The notes under the pieces: generated by a model
The model's input: only the letters and a program-made list of their open reading frames with translations
What the model was told of the DNA's origin: nothing
Databases searched by the model: none
From: an uncultured Armatimonadia bacterium
GTDB taxonomy: Bacteria; Armatimonadota; Zipacnadia; CAVVLO01
Length of the DNA: 64,000 bases
Direction: 5' to 3'
NCBI GenBank assembly: GCA_963749155.1
Contig: CAVVLO010000001.1
Coordinates: 128,001-192,000 of the forward strand
In this document: positions 16,324 to 25,289 of the stretch, one piece after another
Position numbering within the stretch: the first letter of the stretch is position 1
Layout of the letters: every line of letters begins with the position of its first letter
Translations under genes and position numbers: made by a program

Positions 16324-18044
16324 ATGCAGCAACTAACAACTGATGTGCTGGTTATTGGCTCCGGCGGGGCGGGACTCAGGGCCGCAATAGAAGCGCGAAC
16401 CTGCGGCGCAAGCGTGCTGGTACTCGACAAGAAGAAGCCAGGGCTTGCCAGCACTACCTATTGGGCGGCTTCCGACTGGATGGCCTTCGGCGCGGCGGTT
16501 GGCCACGCTGACCCGGCTGACAGCCCCGAGCAGCATTACCTGGATATCTGCGCGAAGGGCGGCCTGGTAAGTGATCCCGAGCTTTCGCGTATCGTTGCTT
16601 ACGAGGCGCCAGACCGGGTTGAAGACCTCACTCGCTGGGGGATGGACTGGGACCGGGAGCCTGATGGGCGATATCGGCAGATTCTGAGCGATGGCGCGAC
16701 CTACCCGCGCGCCCTGGGCAAGGGCGCCGAGACCGGCAAGCACCTTGTCGAAGTGTTGCTTGAAAGGGCGGCCCAGCTTGGCTGCATGGTGCTGGGTGGC
16801 TGGCGGTTGGCAGATTTACTGGCAGACGAGAAAGGGGTGCTGGCGCTTTGCCTCTCGGCTAGCCAGGAAGACTGGTTGCTGGTCCGGGCGAAGGCTGCGG
16901 TGATCGCCTCGGGCGGGATGGGGGCGCTGTTTGCCGCAAATATCTTTCCGCAGGGGCTGTTCGGTGAGGCAACGATCGCAGCCCTGAGCGCGGGCGCAAA
17001 GCTTGTGAATATGGAGTTCATCCAGATTGGCCCTGGTTCGATGTGGCCGATGAAATTTGCGCTTTCGGGAGTTTTCTGGCGGCTTGCCCCCCAAATTACC
17101 AACGGCCTGGGAGAGGAGTTTCTGGGCCGGTATATGCCCGAGGGCGTCGACCTGGCCCAGGCCCTTTGGGTGAAAGGCGTCTCCTACCCCTATACTGTGC
17201 GCAATGAGAGCCAATATGTGGATCGGGCAATCTTCCACGAGCTCGCCGAGGGGCGCGGCGCCGAGCATGGAGGGGTGTTCCTCAGCCTGGCTCATAATCC
17301 GCCGGAAGTTATCGAGACCGAGGCGCGGGTGCCTTTCGAGTTTTGGTTGAAGCACGGGGTGGACCTGCGACGCGATGCGCTCGAGTTCGCGCCCTGTTGT
17401 CAGCATTTCAACGGAGGACTGCTGATAGACAGCACTGCAAGCGTTGGCGTGCCTGGACTGTATGCGGCAGGCGAGGCGGCGGGTGGGCCTCACGGGGCGG
17501 ATAGACCCGGCGGCAACGCGCTTGCTGACTGTCAGGTGTTCGGGCGTATCGCGGGAAACTCGGCGGCAGACTGGGCTTCTGTGCATCCTCTGCCAGGTGA
17601 GCAGTCAGCGCTGGACTGGGCTGAAGAACGCCAGCAAGCTGTCCTGACCCGGGTTAACGAACAGAATTCAGGAGAGCAGGAAAAAGCTCAGTTGGCGAAG
17701 GAATTATGGCTACATTGCGGCCTTTATCGCGATGCGGCGGGGCTTCAATCCGTCCTTTCCAGTTGTGAGGCAACGAGGGCTAGCCTTGTTCAAAAGGGCG
17801 CGCGGTGTCCTGGTGAGGTGCTGGAACTGGGGCGTTGACCAGGCTCGGTCAGGCTGTGGCGCTGTCGGCGCTGGCCAGAGAGGAGTCGCGCGGCACCCAT
17901 TATCGGGCTGACTTCCCCGTGAAGAACTTGCCCGAGTGGGAGTGCCAGCATCTCATCGGGTGGGAAGGTGGCGAGCTTGCCCTCTCGCGGCGTAAACTGG
18001 ACTTGCCGCTGGAAGTTGCGGCGCTGAGGAGTGAGCTTGAGTGA
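16324..18044 (+). CDS. SdhA/FrdA/NadB-superfamily FAD-binding flavoprotein (frameshift ~17835)
   Basis: VIGSGGAG, IASGG, NMEFIQ, HFNGG, GLYAAGE, HGADRPGGNALAD. The C-terminal REESRGTHYRADFP is in the next frame after a G homopolymer. Confidence 0.85.
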
Positions 18045-18685: not shown

Positions 18686-20669
18686 ATGGAGTGGAGCTTC
18701 GGGCGAGAACAACTCGGGCGGCTTGAGTGCGGCGCCAGCCGCGAATGGCTGCTGACCAATGGCCTGGGCGGCTGGGCGAGTGGTACCTTCAGCGGGCTGA
18801 ATACTCGGCGGTACCACGGGTTGCTCGTGGCTGCAGCCAGTCCCCCAAGCGGGCGCTGGTTGCTGGTCAACAAGCTCGAAGAAGAATTGCTGCTGCGCGG
18901 CAAGACTTTCCAACTCGGAGTCAACACCTATCGTGGCGCGCTGGAACCCTCAGGTCATCTGCTGCTTCACGAAGCCAGTTTCGACGGTACGATGCGGTTT
19001 GTCTACGCCTGCGAGGATGTGCTGCTCGAGAAGCAAATTGTAATGGTGCAGGGCGCCAACCTGACGCTGGTGCGCTACCGGCAGCTTTCAGGCCCACCCC
19101 TCCAGTTGAAGGCGCGCCTCTGGGCTAACAGCCGAGATCTCCACGGCGATACTCACGCGAGCCCGCACTTTTCCACCAAAGTCGAAGAGCGCGAGGGAGG
19201 CTGGCTGGCCCATCAGGCTTTTCCGGAGGCGCCAACTTTGCTGGCAAAGGCGACGGCTGGCGAGTTCGGCGGAGAAGCTTACTGGATTTATAACGTCCAC
19301 TATCAGGAAGAAGCCGCTCGCGGCCTGCAGGCGGAAGAGGATGTCTTCTCGCCGGGCTGTTTCGAGTGGTCAAGTGCGGCCGGGACTTCGGTAATCGTGG
19401 CGCTGGCGGCGGATGAAGCGCCTGAAGGCGACCTGGACGCTCTGTTCGAGCAGGCTGTGGTGGACGCCCGACGCCCCTGGCGACAGCAGAAAGACAGGTT
19501 TCGAGACTCCACTTGCCCAGGCTCTGCTCGGGGCCAGCGAGTCCTTTAGCGTGAGGGACGAGGACAAAGGCCGCTATCTGCTGGCCGGCTATCACTGGTT
19601 TGGGCCTTGGGGCAGAGACACTTTTATTGCGCTGCCTGGCCTTACGCTCGTGACAGGGCGCTTCGAAGAGGCCAAAGCGCTGCTTTCGACCCTGGCTCGC
19701 CACGTTACAGAAGGCCTCGTGCCCAATCTGGTGGACGAGGGGGGCGGGGCGGCTTACAACACGGTAGACGCCTCACTGTGGTATATCTGGGCGGGTCAGA
19801 AGTATCTCGATTACACGGGCGATGTGGAGTTCGCCAGAACAGAACTCTGGCCTGTCCTTCAGGACATCCTGCACAGTTACGAGACAGGCACGCGTTACGG
19901 CATCCACGCCGATTCCGACGGGCTGATAACCGCAGGGGATGAGGGTACCCAGCTTACCTGGATGGACGCCAAGTACGGCGACTGGGTAGTGACTCCGCGC
20001 GCGGGCAAGGCGGTCGAGATAAATGCGCTTTGGTATAACGCCCTGCGCTTTGGAGAGAAGCTGGCCGCCCTGGCTGGCGAGTCGGGCGACCACTATGGCA
20101 GGCTGGCTTCGCGCGTCTTCGAGAGCTTCAATCAGAGCTTCTGGTACCCCGAAGGCGGGTATCTCCTGGACGTAATCGGCCCCGCTGGAGTTGATGCTTC
20201 CTTCCGGCCTAACCAGATCATCGCCGCGAGCCTGCCTTTCTCCGTCCTGGACAAGGCCAGAAGCCGACTGATGGTGGAGAAGGCCTGGCAGCGACTTTGG
20301 ACAGGCCACGGATTGCGCTCCTTGGCTCCCGATGATCCGCATTATATCGGTCATTATGGGGGAGATACGGCCTCCAGAGATGGCGCTTACCACCGGGGGA
20401 CGGCCTGGGGATGGCTGGCGGGGCCGTTCTTCACCGCCTTCAGGCGCGCTTTTGGCGAGGAGCCCTGGGCGCGTGAGACACTTGCAGAGCTGTTTGCCGG
20501 TTTTGAGGGGCACCTTTGGGAAGCCGGGGTCGGGTTCGTGTCTGAGATCTTCGATGGAGACGCGCCGCACCTCTCGCGTGGCTGCATCGCCCAGGCTTGG
20601 AGCGTTGCTGAGTTGCTGCGCGCCTGGTCAGAAGACTATCTGGGCAACCGGCCCGACTTCTGGGCCTAG
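18686..20669 (+). CDS. Glycogen debranching enzyme / amylo-alpha-1,6-glucosidase (GDE_N + GDE_C; frameshift ~19480)
   Basis: REWLLTNGLGG, RRYHGLL, AGYHWFGPWGRDTFIAL, TVDASLW, TWMDAK, EINALWY, RPNQI, SEIFDG, QAWSVAE. Confidence 0.9.
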
Positions 20670-22234
20670 CCAGCGTTTCCGTCCAGTGGCAGGCGGTTCA
20701 GCCGGTCCAGGCAGAGCTGCTTGCAGTCACCGCAGAAACGCACTCCGCGCCTGCATTCGTCAGCGATTTGGGCATGCTCCTCTGCGCTGTCAGCCAGGAA
20801 GAAGGCCAGCAGGCTGGAGATGCTGCATAGCCGCGTGTCGGGATTTCCGCCCAACGTGGCGTGTTCTTCCTTCGTGCGACCTCCCCCTGTCAGCGCGCGT
20901 TTCAGCTTGGTCGCGACTGCCTGGGAAGATTCATCCAGATAAATTGAAGTCGTTTCGCTCTCGGGATTCATAACATCCACATAGCTGCCGGTCGCCTGGT
21001 CAATATAAGGATGCAGGCCTGCAACTGCGCGTATGTAAAGAGCAACAGGCCTGGGCCAACCGACATCAGCGGCGTGGCGGCGGGCCATCCGGACATAGAT
21101 GTCCTGATCCAGAGTCCCTATGAAAGCGGTCCGGACGCCGTCTGTCGAGGCGGGCAGCAGCAACTCCGCAGTGCGCAGCAGCGGCCGGTAGACCTCGGCG
21201 ACCTGGCTCTGTAACCTGAGTCCAAAAGCGGCGTTGAGGTTGGCGAGCGACAAGTGCGCCCCGGCTTCAAGGGCAAGCGCGGCAAGCTGAGGATCATCGC
21301 GCTGGGAGATGATTTCAGCGGTTTCCAGATTTACCCCAAGCCTTGGTAAACGCGCCACAAACTCACTTTGGGCATGGGCGCGGGCTGCTTCGAGAGATAC
21401 CTCGCCCGAGGCGGAAGCCTCCAGATCGCGCACGAAGAGGGTCAATTTTGCGCCAAGCGACTGCAGCCAGCCAAGGAGCGATGCCACCGCGGCATGTTGA
21501 AGCGTCATCCGGCCCTGCCCCGGCACTCCTGAGACTACCGTTACTGGTTTGCCCTCGCGCAAGGCATCGGCGACCAGAGCGAAGTCGCGCATCCCGACGA
21601 TAAGGCCGCGGGTTATGTATTCGTGTGGGGCCTCGAAGAGCTGCAGCAAACGCTCATAGTTGTGGGAGAACTCGGGCAGCGAGGGCGTTATGTGGAACTC
21701 GCGCGAAAGGTTCTCCTCCCGCGCCAGCGAGGCGTAATCGGCCCGGCTGGAGATAGGGTCAATGTTGAATTCACCTGTAGCGGGGGTCGCTCTGTCAGTC
21801 TGCATCAACTGCTTGCTCTGGGCCAGTTCGGCGGCGAACCGGGTGGCGAGATTTTCTTGCGCCTCGCGCGCCTTGGCAAGCATAAACAGCACCATATCCT
21901 CGGCTACATCGGGGCTAAGACCGACCTCGGAAGCCTGCTTGCGCGCGGTCTCGCGCAGGCCTTCCTCAACGAAAGGCCGATGGATACGCTCCGAGTGCAG
22001 CAGTTTTGCCAGAGCAACGCGCTCGGCGCTGCTTATGCGGGCCGAAAACTCCTCCAGTGCGGCCTTGGTGTGTTTCCGGATGGTCGCGCGCTCCCTGGTC
22101 AGGAACTGGCGGTAATCTTCCGCATCCGGTTTGTACCGGGTGATTACCTGCGCCGGGTCGGTCCCCGCAAGCAGCTCGGTTACCGCTTCGGTCAGATTCA
22201 GAGGGGCGCCAGTCGCTTCGTTGCTCGTACTCAT
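20666..22234 (-). CDS. Fusion of an AroQ chorismate-mutase-like domain and a degenerate archaeal-type tryptophanyl-tRNA synthetase paralog
   Basis: aa 45-130 match the CM type II pattern (R49, R66, K77, E90, Q126). aa ~155-522 follow archaeal TrpRS (PH..RGL..G.RD, DLEA, DQD, ALTGG..LGG.PD, C..G..CG.CK), but HIGH is TLQH and KMSKS is VMNPE. Confidence 0.8.
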   Translation of the reverse strand: MSTSNEATGAPLNLTEAVTELLAGTDPAQVITRYKPDAEDYRQFLTRERATIRKHTKAALEEFSARISSAERVALAKLLHSERIHRPFVEEGLRETARKQASEVGLSPDVAEDMVLFMLAKAREAQENLATRFAAELAQSKQLMQTDRATPATGEFNIDPISSRADYASLAREENLSREFHITPSLPEFSHNYERLLQLFEAPHEYITRGLIVGMRDFALVADALREGKPVTVVSGVPGQGRMTLQHAAVASLLGWLQSLGAKLTLFVRDLEASASGEVSLEAARAHAQSEFVARLPRLGVNLETAEIISQRDDPQLAALALEAGAHLSLANLNAAFGLRLQSQVAEVYRPLLRTAELLLPASTDGVRTAFIGTLDQDIYVRMARRHAADVGWPRPVALYIRAVAGLHPYIDQATGSYVDVMNPESETTSIYLDESSQAVATKLKRALTGGGRTKEEHATLGGNPDTRLCSISSLLAFFLADSAEEHAQIADECRRGVRFCGDCKQLCLDRLNRLPLDGNAG

Positions 22235-23473
22235 ACCACCTTTATACGCGCAAAATTGCCTTTTCCGACCTTCAGCACGGCGCCGTCTGTGACTTCGAGC
22301 AGCGCGCTGGCATCGAGAAGCTTCTCGCCATCCAGTGAGACAGCCCCCTGCTTCACCAAACGCTTGATGTCACCGCGCGAGGCGATGCCTGGGAAGCCGG
22401 CCTTCTCGACCAAATCCAGTGGCGAGAGCTTGCCGGCAGCAATCTTCAGCTCCACCAGGTCGTCCGGCGCTTCGGCCTGTTTGCCGGCACTTGGATGCAG
22501 CAACTCGAAGTTCTCCGCCGCCTTCTCGGCCGCCGCCTCGTCCCAGAAACGCTTGACCAGCTCGGTCGCCGAGCCGGCGTTTCATCAGGCGCGGATGGAA
22601 AGTATGGTCGCTCACCGGGTTGGCCGCATACTCGGACAGGCCGGCTTCCAGCTCGTCGAGTTGCTCCAGGGTCACGCCCGTCAGCAACTTGAAGTAGAGC
22701 AGCATTACTTCATCCGGCAGGCTCATAGCCTTGCCGTACATCCGGTCGGGCTCTTCTGTAATGCCGATATAATTGCCAAGCGATTTGGACATCTTCTGCG
22801 TGCCGTCGGTGCCTGGCAGGATGGGCAATGTAAGCACGCATTGCTGAGGCTGGCCATACGCCTGCTGGATGGTGCGGCCCATCAGCATATTGAAAGTCTG
22901 GTCGGTGCCTCCAAGCTCGACATCGGCCTTCAGCGCCACCGAGTCATAGCCCTGCAGCAGGCAATACATAAACTCGTGCAGGCGGATTGGCTCTTCGGCC
23001 TTCCAGCGCTTCTCGAAGGAGTCGCGTTCGAGCATCCGGGCCACGGTCACCTGAGCGGCCAGGCGCATCATATCGGCCAGGTTCATCCCCGCCAGCCAGT
23101 CACCGTTATAGACAACCTTTGTCTTTTCTTTGTCCAGAAGCCGGAAGACCTGCTCTTCATAGGTGCGCGCATAGGCCAGCACATCCTCTGGAGACAGCTG
23201 CGGCCTGGTGTTGTCGCGCCCCGAAGGGTCGCCTATCTGCGCGGTAAAGGTGCCGACCAGAAAGTAAATTTCGTGCCCAATATCTTGAAGTTGTCGCAGC
23301 TTCTCTATCGGCACGGTGTGACCGAAATGGAGGTCTGAGGTGGTCGGATCTACCCCCAGCTTTATGCGCAGGGGCCTGCCTTCTTTGAGCTTGAGAGCCA
23401 GGGCTTCTTCCGAAGGCAGCAAATCGGCCGCGCCTCTGAGGAAGACCTTCATTTGCTTGTCGATGTCCATCAT
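22231..23473 (-). CDS. tyrS: Tyrosine--tRNA ligase with C-terminal S4 domain (apparent 1-nt insertion ~22570)
   Basis: KLGVDPT..LHFGH, IGDPSG, LLQGYDS, GGTDQTFN, KMSKS. The S4 domain RRLATELVKRF..SRGDIKRLVKQGAV..VGKG is in the next frame. Confidence 0.95.
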
Positions 23474-23549
23474 CTGCTGCTAGCTTCCTTTTTTAATAGG
23501 ACGTAGCTTCAGCAAAGTCCTATCATCAGTGCCAGTTGGCGGCGAAGGT

Positions 23550-23558
23550 ATTCTACCA
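23550..23558 (-). promoter_or_regulatory. Putative extended -10 promoter for tyrS
   Basis: Minus strand reads TG-G-TAGAAT about 77 bp upstream of the tyrS ATG, just downstream of the lemA terminator. Confidence 0.4.
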
Positions 23559-23579
23559 GAGGCAGTCTTTGCCTCATAA

Positions 23580-23609
23580 GAAAACGGGAGCGGCGTTTGC
23601 CGCTCCCGT
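23580..23609 (-). terminator. Intrinsic terminator after lemA
   Basis: ACGGGAGCGGC-AAAC-GCCGCTCCCGT followed by TTTTC on the minus strand. Confidence 0.75.
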
Positions 23610-23632
23610 CTCATCTCTTGCCTGGCAGGAGT

Positions 23633-24192
23633 TTAGAACTGCACGCGGACGGGTTCGCGCGCCTCCGGTTCTTCTATCCGATAATAAGGCAAAGGTCGGG
23701 CGCTCATAAAGCTGGCTATCACACTGTTGGGGAAGACCTGTATCAGCGTGTTGAAGGTCATCACAGCCTCGTTGTAGACCTCGCGCGAGGTAGCGATTTC
23801 CTGCTCTATCTGCTGGAGTTGCTGCTGCAAATCCATAAAGTTCTGGTCTGCTTTGAGGTTGGGATACGCCTCGGCAACCGCAAAAAGGCTTCTCAAAGCG
23901 CCGGTCAGAATATTATCAGCCTGGGCGCGTTCTTCCACAGTGCCGGCATTGTCCATTGCGGCGCGCGCCTGAGTGACCCCCTCGAGGGTCTCTCGCTCAT
24001 GCGCGGCGTAGCCTTTCACCGTCTCGACCAGATTGGGGATGAGGTCATAACGCACGGCGAAGCTGCACATCGATCTGTGCCCAGGACTGTTCTGCCCGAT
24101 TGCGCTGGGCCACTAATCCGGTTGTAGATCCCTATCAGCGTGACGATTATCAGTGCGACGAGAACGAGTAATCCAATGGCTAGAGCAAACAT
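23633..24192 (-). CDS. lemA: LemA family protein (several indels 24055-24120)
   Basis: N-terminal TM and YN. The corrected frame gives [15 protein letters not shown], then [32 protein letters not shown]. Confidence 0.92.
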
Positions 24193-24255
24193 CAGCCTCA
24201 CTCTCCTCAGGTCGGTCTGGATAAATCCTATCACGCTGCCAGATTGGGGTCAAAA

Positions 24256-25289
24256 TTATCGGGGCACTTTCTCTAACCCGGCTACCTCGCCAAGGGCTTC
24301 TTCGACCTCGTCGCAGCCAGTTGTGAATTCAATCTGCCTGGCAAGGGCCTCTTCAGTGGCTTCCGGATCAGCCTGGCGTAGCCTGGCAGACAGTCTGCCG
24401 AGCAACCTGGCGAGGGGCCTGGGTGAATCCTGGGCGGTTTCCATCTCGGACCTCCATATCGTGCGTGAAGGTCCGATATGCAATTGGCGTGCCAGTTTAC
24501 GGGCTGCCTGTAACCTGGAACAAATCGGCGACCTGGAGCGTGACTTCGGGTCTGGAGACCTGCTTTATCGGCCAATAACCGCCTGCCTAGCGTGATTGGG
24601 ATAAGGCTTGTCTCGGTTAGGAGAAACGTCTCACGCAAGCTTGCGCCTCCAAGTTGAGTTTCCAGCACTAGTGCTCTCGTGGGGGCTAGCGTCACCTGAT
24701 TATCAGGCGCCACCAGCTCGAGCAGGGGCGTCTCGCCGGCGCCAGTTATGCCACCGGCCGAGATAAAAGCGAGCGCCTCCTGATACCCAAGCGCCTCATA
24801 TTCGTGAGAAAGCGCGTCAAACAACGCGCCCAGAGTAGAACCAGCGGTCGCGGCGCCCGAAGCGCTGGCCAGCAGGTTGCCACACCCCTCGTAACTTGCT
24901 ACCAGATCGCCCTGAGGAGGCTTTACAGTGAGAGTGCGCGCAAGTTGCAGCCGCAAGCCCCAGCGCTCGGCTTCCAGTTCGATCCGGGCTTGCTCCAGGA
25001 TTGGTCCAGCCGGAGGGGTAGCTGTCGCTTCATATACTTGTTGATCGGCGTAGACGTTCAACTGGAGCGACTTCACGCCCAGGGTAGTTAATCCAGCATA
25101 GACTGTCCCGGCCAGGTCCGAAGCAGAATCGAGCGGCTCATACTGCCGCGCAGCCGAGGTTACTGCCCAGTTGCACGCTTTACCCAGCCACTCGTAGCGG
25201 GCAACTTCCAGTTCGGTAAGGTCGATTCTGATCGCGGTCAGTTTTTCTACTAGAACGGTCTTGCCCTCGCCAGGGCAATCCGTCACCAC
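24256..25289 (-). CDS. Hypothetical protein (probable frameshift ~24510)
   Basis: Long ORF whose start overlaps the upstream stop. The protein-like C-terminus continues in ORF 24256-24483. Confidence 0.5.

Follow-up and report, generated by a model that had tools for sequence, protein, structure and literature searches.

Fusion of an AroQ chorismate mutase domain with a predicted pseudo-tryptophanyl-tRNA synthetase in an uncultured Armatimonadia bacterium

The stretch of DNA analysed here (64,000 nt of contig CAVVLO010000001.1, hereafter the window) contains an open reading frame (ORF) whose deduced product, P0001, joins an AroQ-type chorismate mutase (CM) domain to a body resembling tryptophanyl-tRNA synthetase (TrpRS). 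Chorismate mutase determines how synthesis is divided between Trp and Phe/Tyr, and the locus raises the question of whether this CM domain works as an enzyme or as a sensor, and of what a synthetase devoid of its catalytic motifs would do beside it. The original prediction offered the fusion as a candidate new sensor or enzyme, and its architecture seems to be undescribed in the full-text literature that we searched, where we found no instance of it.

A two-domain gene with an AroQ domain

The fusion gene encodes a genuine two-domain protein (Table 1). The original prediction held that the ORF carries no frameshift and that residues 45–130, the segment aligned to AroQ, correspond to nt 21845–22102; all 522 codons are indeed open, and the ORF coordinates agree with that placement. 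The full-length AF2 model of P0001 has a mean pLDDT of 90.6 and a pTM of 0.88, the DPxxV motif of the N-terminal cap is kept across the fusion family, and the TrpRS-like body, of the archaeal, Fe-S type, spans residues ~170–515. The join between the two domains is not an assembly chimera, since 62 independent genome loci have this architecture and the join is spanned by short contigs of related strains, from runs X2 and X3. The same architecture was sought in related genomes and found at these 62 loci, all from Chloroflexota/SAR202, which together with ~10 metagenomic clusters form the small family to which P0001 belongs.

Table 1. Position of the fusion gene, its domains and motifs, and the adjacent tyrS gene (coordinates refer to the window)
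Feature	Coordinates	Strand	Remarks
Whole ORF, P0001: AroQ CM domain and predicted pseudo-TrpRS	20666..22234	-	522 aa, open throughout
N-terminal cap, residues 10–35	22130..22207	-	Short helices 14–22 and 27–33
AroQ (CM_2) domain, residues 38–139	21818..22123	-	Helices 38–79, 87–104 and 108–139
Inter-domain linker, residues 140–169	21728..21817	-	AF2 confidence low at 146–156
TrpRS-like N-terminal segment and Rossmann (catalytic) domain, residues 170–430	20945..21727	-	Remodelled
Degenerate HIGH, T244-L-Q-H247	21494..21505	-	Compared with 51 true TrpRS
Degenerate KMSKS, V421-M-N-P-E425	20960..20974	-	Compared with 51 true TrpRS
Anticodon-binding (TAB) domain, residues 431–515	20690..20944	-	TrpRS-level similarity
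Four-Cys motif, C470-x23-C494-x6-C501-x2-C504	20723..20827	-	Fits the [4Fe-4S] motif of Fe-S TrpRS
tyrS, directly upstream of the fusion ORF	22231..23473	-	TIGR00234, 293.7 bits

Both halves of the protein are under purifying selection. Over 10 SAR202 pairs, dN/dS was 0.09–0.21 for the Rossmann part, 0.07–0.17 for the TAB domain and 0.01–0.10 for the CM domain, which is the most constrained part of the fusion; comparison of the window gene with the related-strain contigs gave 20 synonymous changes among the 26 variants listed.

By homology, residues 38–139 are a real AroQ chorismate mutase domain. The Pfam profile CM_2 (PF01817) aligns with residues 49–126 of P0001 over profile positions 2–79 of 80 (E 9.9e-5), scoring 22.9 bits on the protein and 26.6 bits in a six-frame search of the genome, both below its gathering score of 27 bits; a phmmer search of the PDB sequences with residues 40–135 as a single sequence found no chorismate mutase. 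Fusion homologues exceed the CM_2 threshold, with 33.4 bits for P0003, 27.6–38.4 bits for six of the nine locus proteins scanned and a maximum of 41.8 bits. A family profile built from 12 CM domains of the family matched 17 PDB sequences at E<=1, 14 of them chorismate mutases; all eight matches at E<0.01 were chorismate mutases (the best being 5TS9, 1.1e-6; 6CNZ, 9.9e-6; 6AL9, 1.2e-5; and 1ECM, 4.5e-5), and the three matches to other proteins appeared only at E 0.24–0.8. The AF2 model of the domain (pLDDT 95) has the all-helical three-helix AroQ fold (helices 2–40, 48–65 and 69–95, in domain numbering) and was superposed by Foldseek on 1ECM with a TM of 0.86–0.90 and an rmsd of 1.2 Å; ranks 1–49 of this search were AroQ CM or isochorismate-pyruvate-lyase entries throughout, with E-values of just 0.016–1.5. 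The profile and structure matches expected for the N-terminus are those of the family profile and of Foldseek, P0001 by itself being sub-threshold in Pfam.

The family profile aligned without gaps to 1ECM, the E. coli enzyme (EcCM), with positions 9–96 on 9–96, reproducing the proposed constant offset of +38 to the AroQ domain of E. coli PheA. As had been proposed, R49, R66, K77, E90 and Q126 of P0001 fall exactly on R11, R28, K39, E52 and Q88 in this alignment; R11′, R28, K39, E52 and Q88 of EcCM are the active-site residues that we take to be the most cited for AroQ catalysis. Conservation of these positions in homologues, on which the prediction depended, ranges from 67 to 70 of 70 family sequences (R49, R66, E90 and Q126 in 70/70, K77 in 67/70). 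The alignment also confirms that the second-shell residues D48, R51 and S84 are replaced by R86, V89 and A122, so that none of the three is kept in P0001. The family has K at the D48 position in 66/70 sequences, V at the R51 position in 63/70, with R kept in four divergent members, and A at the S84 position in 67/70. We infer that K/R86 is a candidate to compensate for the missing R51.

A homodimer model of the CM domain scored 0.73, against 0.08 for the best of three controls, although this value may reflect likeness to solved AroQ dimers; contact agreement over three runs was at least 93 %, with a partner pLDDT of at least 83. Among 30 proteins solved as pairs, 20 attained the mark used for homodimer models, as did one of 23 solved as single chains.

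The TrpRS-like half and its gene neighbours

The body had been described as an archaeal-type TrpRS, in agreement with our searches: the TrpRS of A. pernix (3A04) was its best PDB match by sequence (2.7e-25) and was also matched by Foldseek (E 8.9e-20, TM 0.81, rmsd 2.7 Å), and the half has the class Ic fold, with a Rossmann and an anticodon-binding domain. Its predicted catalytic erosion was also evident. The half falls far below the NCBIfam equivalog cut-offs for TrpRS, with 176.7 vs 451 bits for the best model (NF008925) and 90.2 vs 176.75 bits for TIGR00233. The HIGH signature is absent from P0001, which has TLQH (true TrpRS have H first in 50/51 and G third in 49/51), and so is KMSKS, which reads VMNPE (K in 49/51 and S in 51/51 true TrpRS). 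Lacking these catalytic motifs, the half is predicted to be a pseudo-synthetase. P0002, which was assembled independently, has the same TLQH and eroded motifs; other family members mostly contain H-L-G-H, the first His being present in 68/70, and the first position of KMSKS is V in 19 of 27 family sequences. The amino acid pocket is remodelled as well, with R354 in P0001 at the position of a Gln found in 47/51 true TrpRS, and therefore Trp may no longer be bound.

The two parts of this half differ in their identity to true TrpRS, which is 32 % for the TAB domain and 23.5 % for the Rossmann part, vs 36 % among true TrpRS in both cases. All four cysteines of the putative Fe-S motif are present in 70/70 family sequences, and their spacing in P0001 agrees with C-x(21–24)-C-x6-C-x2-C, the motif given for the anticodon-binding domain of Fe-S TrpRS in the available text of PMC2954223.

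Upstream of the fusion gene, the TGA stop codon of tyrS (frame-corrected) overlaps the fusion ATG as ATGA, at 22231–22234. The assembly has apparent frameshifts in three neighbouring genes and fine sequence detail therefore needs caution. In 61 of the 62 related loci, trpS lies directly downstream of the fusion; in SAR202, the fusion and a divergent trpS of its own make up a cassette of two genes, a hint that the fusion may be a functional partner of that synthetase. The genome of the window has a canonical bacterial trpS elsewhere. One public source labels a relative as a tryptophanyl-tRNA synthetase, and pathway reconstructions that use automatic annotation of this kind would therefore show one TrpRS too many and lack a chorismate mutase.

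Chorismate mutases in carriers and their relatives

The fusion appears to be the only chorismate mutase of the organism. In the genome of the window, 100 % complete by markers, the fusion ORF is the only CM_2 match, and a search for CM_1 (AroH) across this genome gave no match. It also encodes a chorismate synthase, a TrpE-like enzyme and a separate prephenate dehydratase (PDT)-ACT protein; PDH_N, for prephenate or arogenate dehydrogenase, was searched for in the same genome and not found. All five other chromosome-level carriers likewise have the fusion as sole CM_2 match, no CM_1 and a monofunctional PDT, so PDT is retained in each of the six carriers checked for CM_2, CM_1 and PDT. Three SAR202 carriers beyond these six also have the fusion as their sole CM_2 match and no CM_1.

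The fusion was absent from all the class relatives searched (0/40), 38 of which have one strong CM_2 match (72–98 bits), as part of a CM_2-PDT-ACT protein in both cases examined. In a SAR202 family sample of 61 genomes, four carry the fusion and the same four alone have a CM_2 match, whereas AroH CM_1 occurs in 0/4 carriers and 54/57 non-carriers. The fusion has replaced a conventional CM in at least two distant lineages, the complementary distributions being drawn from related genomes and amounting to few independent events. Because the fusion is the sole AroQ/AroH homologue in carriers, and related non-carriers have a conventional CM, its CM domain is most likely a working enzyme, with a predicted housekeeping role, and not a sensor of chorismate or prephenate. 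The original prediction had left the choice between sensor and enzyme undecided; the evidence that favours the enzyme in the carriers examined also speaks against the chorismate/prephenate sensor.

Possible roles of the fusion and comparison with known systems

The reading that we favour, with somewhat better than even confidence, combines a working AroQ mutase with a non-charging, TrpRS-derived dimer scaffold that is also an allosteric module sensing Trp or tRNA-Trp. The AroQ domain would turn chorismate into prephenate for the separate PDT-ACT protein, having presumably displaced the CM domain of class relatives, which is fused to PDT in both that were examined. The 350 residues at the C-terminus would derive from an archaeal, Fe-S-type TrpRS; the change of HIGH to TLQH and of KMSKS to VMNPE would have removed the class-I ATP-binding signatures, and hence tRNA charging, leaving tRNA-Trp to be charged by the product of the canonical bacterial trpS that lies at another place in this genome. 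AroQ mutases assemble their active sites across the two chains of a dimer, and the pseudo-TrpRS half would be an obligate-dimer scaffold that pairs two AroQ chains. It would also act allosterically, as HisZ does on HisG: its retained anticodon-binding/[4Fe-4S] module would read Trp and/or tRNA-Trp and adjust how chorismate is divided, at the branch point, between Trp and Phe/Tyr. We infer dimer assembly and, from the sole-CM status of the fusion in carriers and its alternation with conventional CMs, mutase catalysis; that the pseudo-TrpRS half senses Trp or tRNA-Trp is plausible by analogy. Gating of the mutase by these ligands would fit with the purifying selection, with the linkage to tyrS or trpS and with the retention of the anticodon-binding/Fe-S module; its most specific form, in which the pseudo-TrpRS senses tRNA-Trp and/or Trp, or redox state, via the anticodon-binding domain and the [4Fe-4S] cluster, is tentative and less likely than not.

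A simpler alternative, which we consider rather unlikely, is that the TrpRS-like half gives a housekeeping AroQ mutase a stable platform for dimerisation and solubility and senses neither ligand nor tRNA. Such a platform would be at hand in an obligate dimer like TrpRS for a mutase that needs to dimerise (available text of PMC2954223; the homodimer model, which may echo solved AroQ dimers), and would fit the remodelled catalytic pocket residues. It would have no need for the four Fe-S cysteines, yet these are kept in 70/70 sequences, for a TAB domain at TrpRS-level similarity, or for HLGH, yet this is present in most relatives (first His in 68/70), and it leaves unexplained the near-universal position beside trpS or tyrS.

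The half could instead have been re-tooled as a second enzyme, with a new reaction on a post-prephenate aromatic acid or amino acid, or on tRNA-Trp, making the fusion a two-step bifunctional protein. The loss of both HIGH (TLQH) and KMSKS in P0001 makes ATP-dependent adenylation unlikely, and different motifs are eroded in each lineage (DQD is kept in the lineage of P0001, IGGD occurs in SAR202), which argues against one conserved new chemistry. This second enzyme thus seems improbable, in spite of a dN/dS of about 0.1–0.2 in the Rossmann part, conserved family-specific pocket replacements (e.g. R or Y in place of the Gln of true TrpRS), the conserved VEVMTNAVP in place of KMSKS, HLGH in most SAR202 members and the KMS-like motifs of the divergent members P0006, P0007 and P0022.

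Still less probable is an AroQ domain whose sole task is to bind chorismate or prephenate and to signal this to the TrpRS-like half, as the sub-threshold CM_2 score and the three altered active-site positions might suggest. Against it, 6/6 carriers checked have no CM homologue besides the fusion, all with PDT; in three more SAR202 carriers the fusion is the sole CM_2 match, with no CM_1; and across relatives the fusion and conventional CMs alternate; moreover, the five residues that we take to be catalytic are invariant or nearly so, and the CM domain has the lowest dN/dS. Finally, a working TrpRS with unusual motifs and an appended CM domain is very improbable despite the full-length fold with its TAB domain and Fe-S motif and the public label of a relative, since HIGH and KMSKS are both gone, the score is 176.7 bits against a 451-bit cut-off, and there is a canonical trpS in the genome of the window and an adjacent trpS in 61/62 relatives.

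In kind, an aminoacyl-tRNA synthetase (aaRS) paralogue attached to an enzyme of an amino acid pathway is already known. To our knowledge, chorismate mutases are always regulated by ACT domains, at intrinsic allosteric sites or through partner enzymes; the fusion joins the mutase to a whole dead synthetase for the competing amino acid. If its pseudo-TrpRS half does sense Trp or tRNA-Trp, it would be a new, testable case of translation status feeding back on amino acid biosynthesis, possibly the first branch-point enzyme under direct tRNA control, and would hint at what the enigmatic Fe-S cluster in this subgroup of TrpRS does. It would also be a bacterial metabolic counterpart of the logic of GCN2 and HisZ, with the first TrpRS-derived regulatory domain; the table of aaRS paralogues in the available text of a 2022 review (PMC9437257) includes no TrpRS-like protein that acts outside translation.

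Compared with EcCM (PheA, 1ECM) and other AroQ mutases, the fusion shares the three-helix fold, the gapless alignment and the R11/R28/K39/E52/Q88 set, and would share the intertwined dimer if the prediction holds. It differs from EcCM in having R, V and A at D48, R51 and S84 and a sub-threshold Pfam score, and from AroQ mutases in being joined to a TrpRS-like body, while theirs are joined to PDT-ACT, to DAHP synthase or to nothing. With the Fe-S TrpRS of T. maritima (TM0492, 2G36) and A. pernix (3A04) it shares the fold and the four-Cys motif, with its spacing, in the anticodon-binding domain; unlike them, it lacks HIGH and KMSKS, has a remodelled pocket and an N-terminal AroQ domain, and is not the TrpRS of the cell.

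HisZ, a HisRS paralogue without adenylation activity, is the regulatory subunit of the ATP-phosphoribosyltransferase HisG, according to the available text of PMC9437257. Both are aaRS paralogues coupled to an amino acid biosynthesis enzyme, the fusion showing motif loss and covalent coupling; HisZ, however, is a class II protein and a separate subunit with demonstrated allostery, whereas the fusion is class I and covalent, its sensing is proposed by analogy, and its partner enzyme belongs to the branch competing with that of the cognate amino acid. The HisRS-like domain of GCN2 is a catalytically dead synthetase domain in a eukaryotic kinase. In both proteins, a dead synthetase domain could report amino acid starvation to a fused effector via retained tRNA binding, although GCN2 is a eukaryotic kinase and tRNA binding by the fusion is a prediction from TAB conservation. 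The chorismate mutase Aro7 of yeast is activated by Trp. Like this and other allosteric mutases, such as the CM-PDT-ACT P-proteins, the fusion would combine a branch-point CM with an element that senses aromatic amino acids; in contrast to them, its putative sensor is an entire pseudo-synthetase that carries an Fe-S motif, in place of an ACT domain or an intrinsic site.

The AroQ domain of the fusion protein

In terms of profile scores, the chorismate mutase (CM) match of the window protein (CM_2, the AroQ type; see table below) is marginal by itself, and it is the relatives that make the case. A phmmer search of the PDB sequences with residues 40–135 singly found no chorismate mutase and only two unrelated proteins (E 0.14–0.39), and the ESM Atlas matches of the fusion were archaeal TrpRS clusters only, at 0.89. 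Among the relatives, the homologous protein P0003 scored 33.4 bits with CM_2, above the gathering score, as compared with 27.6–38.4 bits in six of nine scanned locus proteins and 26.3–26.9 bits in the other three, the highest score being 41.8 bits.

Because TrpRS and TyrRS crowded the PDB matches of a full-length family profile, we aligned the CM region alone, and the resulting profile, built from 12 CM domains of the family, was searched against all PDB sequences. Chorismate mutases made up 14 of the 17 matches at E ≤ 1 and all eight at E < 0.01, the three unrelated proteins having E-values of 0.24–0.8; the best matches were 5TS9 (1.1e-6), 6CNZ (9.9e-6), 6AL9 (1.2e-5), 1ECM (4.5e-5) and 5VHT (3.3e-4). 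The profile aligned without gaps to 1ECM, the CM domain of E. coli PheA (EcCM), with positions 9–96 on 9–96. The original prediction had placed R49, R66, K77, E90 and Q126 on catalytic R11, R28, K39, E52 and Q88, and this mapping was exact in the ungapped alignment, as was the placing of R86, V89 and A122 at the non-matching D48, R51 and S84. Each of the five catalytic residues was conserved in 67 to 70 of the 70 family sequences counted. Position 86 lies one helical turn away from position 89, and the K or R found there may substitute for the role of R51.

An AF2 model of the CM domain (pLDDT 95) superposed on 1ECM with a TM of 0.86–0.90 and an rmsd of 1.2 Å, and its Foldseek ranks 1–49 were AroQ mutases or isochorismate-pyruvate lyases throughout, with weak E-values (0.016–1.5), as is usual with short helical domains. 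The homodimer model of this domain scored 0.73, the best of three controls reaching 0.08 (contact agreement at least 93 %, pLDDT at least 83), and among proteins with solved structures 20 of 30 pairs and 1 of 23 single chains attain the dimer mark; because AroQ dimers are solved structures, the score shows likeness and is not proof. The CM_2 match, the PDB profile matches to chorismate mutases and the Foldseek ranks all bear out the claim of an AroQ domain; judged by its predicted fold and catalytic residues, the CM half belongs with AroQ, though its Pfam score is sub-threshold.

Features of the fusion protein, its surroundings and related loci
Feature	Position	Strand	Observation
Fusion ORF	20666..22234	-	522 open codons
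CM_2 domain	residues 49-126		profile positions 2-79 of 80; Pfam E 9.9e-5, 22.9 bits (gathering score 27 bits)
tRNA-synt_1b domain	residues 228-513		Pfam 22.6 bits (cut-off 21.1)
R49	EcCM R11		kept 70/70
R66	EcCM R28		kept 70/70
K77	EcCM K39		kept 67/70
E90	EcCM E52		kept 70/70
Q126	EcCM Q88		kept 70/70
R86	EcCM D48		K in 66/70
V89	EcCM R51		V in 63/70, R in 4/70
A122	EcCM S84		A in 67/70
tyrS	22231-23473	-	sole TyrRS gene found in genome
tyrS, catalytic part	ORF 22370-23473	-	
tyrS, C-terminal S4-like part	ORF 22231-22503	-	
Flavoprotein gene	16324-18044	+	FAD_binding_2, then Succ_DH_flav_C tail in another frame
GDE gene	18686-20669	+	GDE_N and GDE_C in two overlapping ORFs
X19 contigs	21465-21615; 22216-22366		151 nt each, 1-2 differences
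Chorismate_bind fragment, same genome	C1:442095-442328		in-frame TGA
trpS, example locus	L016:7742-8755		downstream of fusion gene
Long-form N-terminal region, example locus	L016:5374-6070		no significant Pfam match

An eroded archaeal-type TrpRS body

The TrpRS of A. pernix (3A04) was the top PDB sequence match, both with the single sequence (2.7e-25) and with the family profile (2.9e-65), and the full-length AF2 model (pLDDT 90.6, pTM 0.88; linker 146–156 of low confidence) compared to it with a TM of 0.81 and an rmsd of 2.7 Å. The C-terminal 330 residues group with the archaeal-type TrpRS models of NCBIfam, with scores well short of the cut-offs (NF008925, 176.7 versus 451 bits). As originally proposed, this body is of the archaeal type and eroded; both signature motifs are lost. 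HIGH has become T244-L-Q-H247, where 51 archaeal-type TrpRS used for comparison (true TrpRS) have H (50/51) and G (49/51) at the changed positions, and KMSxS has become V421-M-N-P-E425, where K is found in 49/51 true TrpRS and S in 51/51. Additionally, R354 occupies the position of a pocket Gln present in 47 of the 51 true TrpRS; among 27 family rows, 15 have R there, 6 have Y and 3 have Q. The eroded motifs recur in the homologous protein P0002 and therefore are not sequencing errors. A working TrpRS is rejected on the failures in HIGH, KMSKS and the equivalog score, and the TrpRS-like half should not carry the TrpRS annotation that one public source gives it.

Erosion is lineage-specific: the first His of HLGH is retained in 68 of 70 family members, the exceptions being the window protein and P0002, and the DQD of GxDQ is intact in the window protein, with IGGD in most SAR202 members. 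The divergent metagenomic proteins P0006, P0007, P0022 and P0028 retain HLGH (HLGY in P0022) and KMS-like motifs, with the canonical D-x-x-R-E of AroQ also present in P0022 and P0028; these four may be still-active bifunctional CM-TrpRS enzymes in the ancestral state. Because P0006, P0007 and P0022 keep HLGH or HLGY and a KMS-like motif, the family ancestor may have been an active CM-TrpRS.

The anticodon-binding (TAB) domain has remained close to TrpRS: identity to true TrpRS was 32 % in this domain and 23.5 % in the Rossmann part, as compared with 36 % for either among true TrpRS. Four cysteines, C470-x23-C494-x6-C501-x2-C504, occur in all 70 family sequences, and their spacing fits the [4Fe-4S] motif C-x(21-24)-C-x6-C-x2-C, which PMC2954223 describes in the TrpRS of T. 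maritima and in homologous enzymes, locating the T. maritima cluster at the anticodon-binding region.

Distribution and gene neighbourhood of the fusion

A word-indexed search identified two relatives, P0002 (94 % identity, 522 aa, from an independent assembly) and P0003 (36 %, 748 aa), and an exhaustive HMMER search added around 10 further 50 %-identity clusters aligned across both query halves (P0005–P0012, P0016, P0022 and P0028). The same architecture was also sought by a pattern scan of species-representative genomes, which yielded 62 loci with ~35 % identity over residues ~13–512, all titled as Chloroflexota, Dehalococcoidia or SAR202 MAGs. These loci, together with related-strain contigs across the domain join, rule out an assembly chimera. 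A short, window-like form (549 aa) is found at eight loci; the long form (740–800 aa) has an additional N-terminal region of ~230 residues, absent from the window protein, which evolves faster than the remainder (dN/dS 0.13–0.33) and had no significant Pfam match in L008, L010, L016 and others. A metagenome scan with P0007 gave one incomplete locus, L074, with its downstream side absent and uninformative upstream genes (arabinofuranosidase-like, M24 peptidase-like and beta-lactamase family). None of the other genomes sampled had a match to the fusion: 400 from the window's phylum, 40 from its class and 100 from one carrier's order. This narrow, patchy occurrence suggests that the fusion has been transferred horizontally.

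In the window, tyrS (TIGR00234, 293.7 bits) is situated directly upstream of the fusion, on the same strand, and is split by a +1 frameshift near 22571. A short contig from the public sequencing run X1 has one base fewer at 22571, restoring the tyrS frame; the split most likely stems from an indel in the assembly. The flavoprotein and GDE genes bring the broken genes to three within ~7 kb, suggestive of assembly indel errors. Once the frameshift is read through, the tyrS TGA stop overlaps the fusion ATG as ATGA, suggesting one operon with translational coupling. Two contigs from X19, a metatranscriptome library, map to the TrpRS-like part and to the junction of tyrS with the fusion; they are too few to claim transcription and, since DNA carry-over is possible, give a weak hint of co-transcription. 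Rfam searches of the window and of 22000–24500 gave nothing but sub-threshold chance matches, with no T-box or other leader ahead of tyrS or the fusion.

In 61 of the 62 related loci (L008–L069), the next gene downstream of the fusion, on its strand and ~50–700 bp away, is a canonical bacterial trpS (TIGR00233, ~300 bits), and this adjacency is common to long-form and short-form loci despite their differing other neighbours. The other window neighbours (flavoprotein, MBL hydrolase, GDE, LemA and xylulokinase) were each beside the relatives in 0 of 62 loci. In each SAR202 carrier of the fusion, no trpS was detected besides the adjacent one. Because this gene is 92 % identical between carriers and 41–46 % identical to the trpS of same-family non-carriers, the SAR202 fusion and trpS look like a co-inherited or transferred two-gene cassette, which would have displaced both native genes, AroH and trpS. 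The trpS of the window's genome is ~90 kb from the fusion; sharing 44–48 % identity with the cassette type and ~50 % with that of SAR202 non-carriers, it therefore does not belong to the cassette type.

Probable replacement of other chorismate mutases and proposed role

In the window's genome (4.17 Mb in 7 contigs, with a marker completeness of 100 %), CM_2 matches the fusion ORF and nothing else, and the AroH-type mutase (CM_1) has no match even at E ≤ 1. The genome contains chorismate synthase, a TrpE-like chorismate-binding enzyme and a prephenate dehydratase with an ACT domain (PDT-ACT) and without a CM domain; PDH_N (prephenate or arogenate dehydrogenase) had no match in this genome, which is 100 % complete by score. 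A second Chorismate_bind fragment is also present. Among the 40 same-class genomes, a single strong CM_2 match (72–98 bits) is present in 38 and CM_1 in none; the CM_2 genes inspected were CM_2-PDT-ACT in two of two. In five chromosome-level carriers of another phylum, the fusion is the only CM_2 match, CM_1 is absent, and a monofunctional PDT is encoded elsewhere in a frame of 280–310 aa. Of 61 genomes sampled from the taxonomic family of one carrier, four have the fusion, being also the only ones with a CM_2 match, and none of these 4 has AroH CM_1, which 54 of the 57 non-carriers possess, the related genomes in these distributions not being independent. The replacement pattern recurs in two widely differing settings: the mutase replaced is CM_2-PDT-ACT in the window's class and AroH in SAR202. 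This is characteristic of non-orthologous displacement and gives the strongest evidence for a catalytically active AroQ domain.

Decay is seen in neither half of the fusion. In 10 SAR202 pairs (Nei-Gojobori), dN/dS was 0.01–0.10 for the CM domain, 0.01–0.16 for the linker and TrpRS N-terminus, 0.09–0.21 for the Rossmann part and 0.07–0.17 for the TAB domain, with dS saturated in several long-form pairs; short-form pairs with dS 0.3–0.6 gave 0.08–0.15. Contigs from related strains in public sediment runs, which are short and in run X1 cover little of the fusion gene, differed from the window gene at 26 positions among the differences listed, 20 being synonymous taken singly and 20 at third codon positions; there were 68 further differences.

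The best-supported reading is that the AroQ domain would serve as the housekeeping chorismate mutase and that the pseudo-TrpRS, without Trp activation, would be retained as a dimer platform and plausibly as a sensor too. Sensing of Trp and/or tRNA-Trp by the pseudo-TrpRS is made plausible by the kept TAB/Fe-S module, purifying selection, linkage to aromatic-synthetase genes and branch-point logic. More speculatively, the pocket might now bind something other than an alpha-amino acid, because Arg or Tyr replaces its conserved Gln. The observation behind the original prediction is confirmed, and its interpretation is partly supported.

The architecture had been presented as one not known to have been described, and we found no description of CM-TrpRS in a search confined to open full-text literature; a table of aaRS paralogues in a 2022 review (PMC9437257) includes nothing TrpRS-like that acts outside translation. 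The fusion yields a clear, testable hypothesis on a combination of known kinds, and its closest functional analogue is HisZ.
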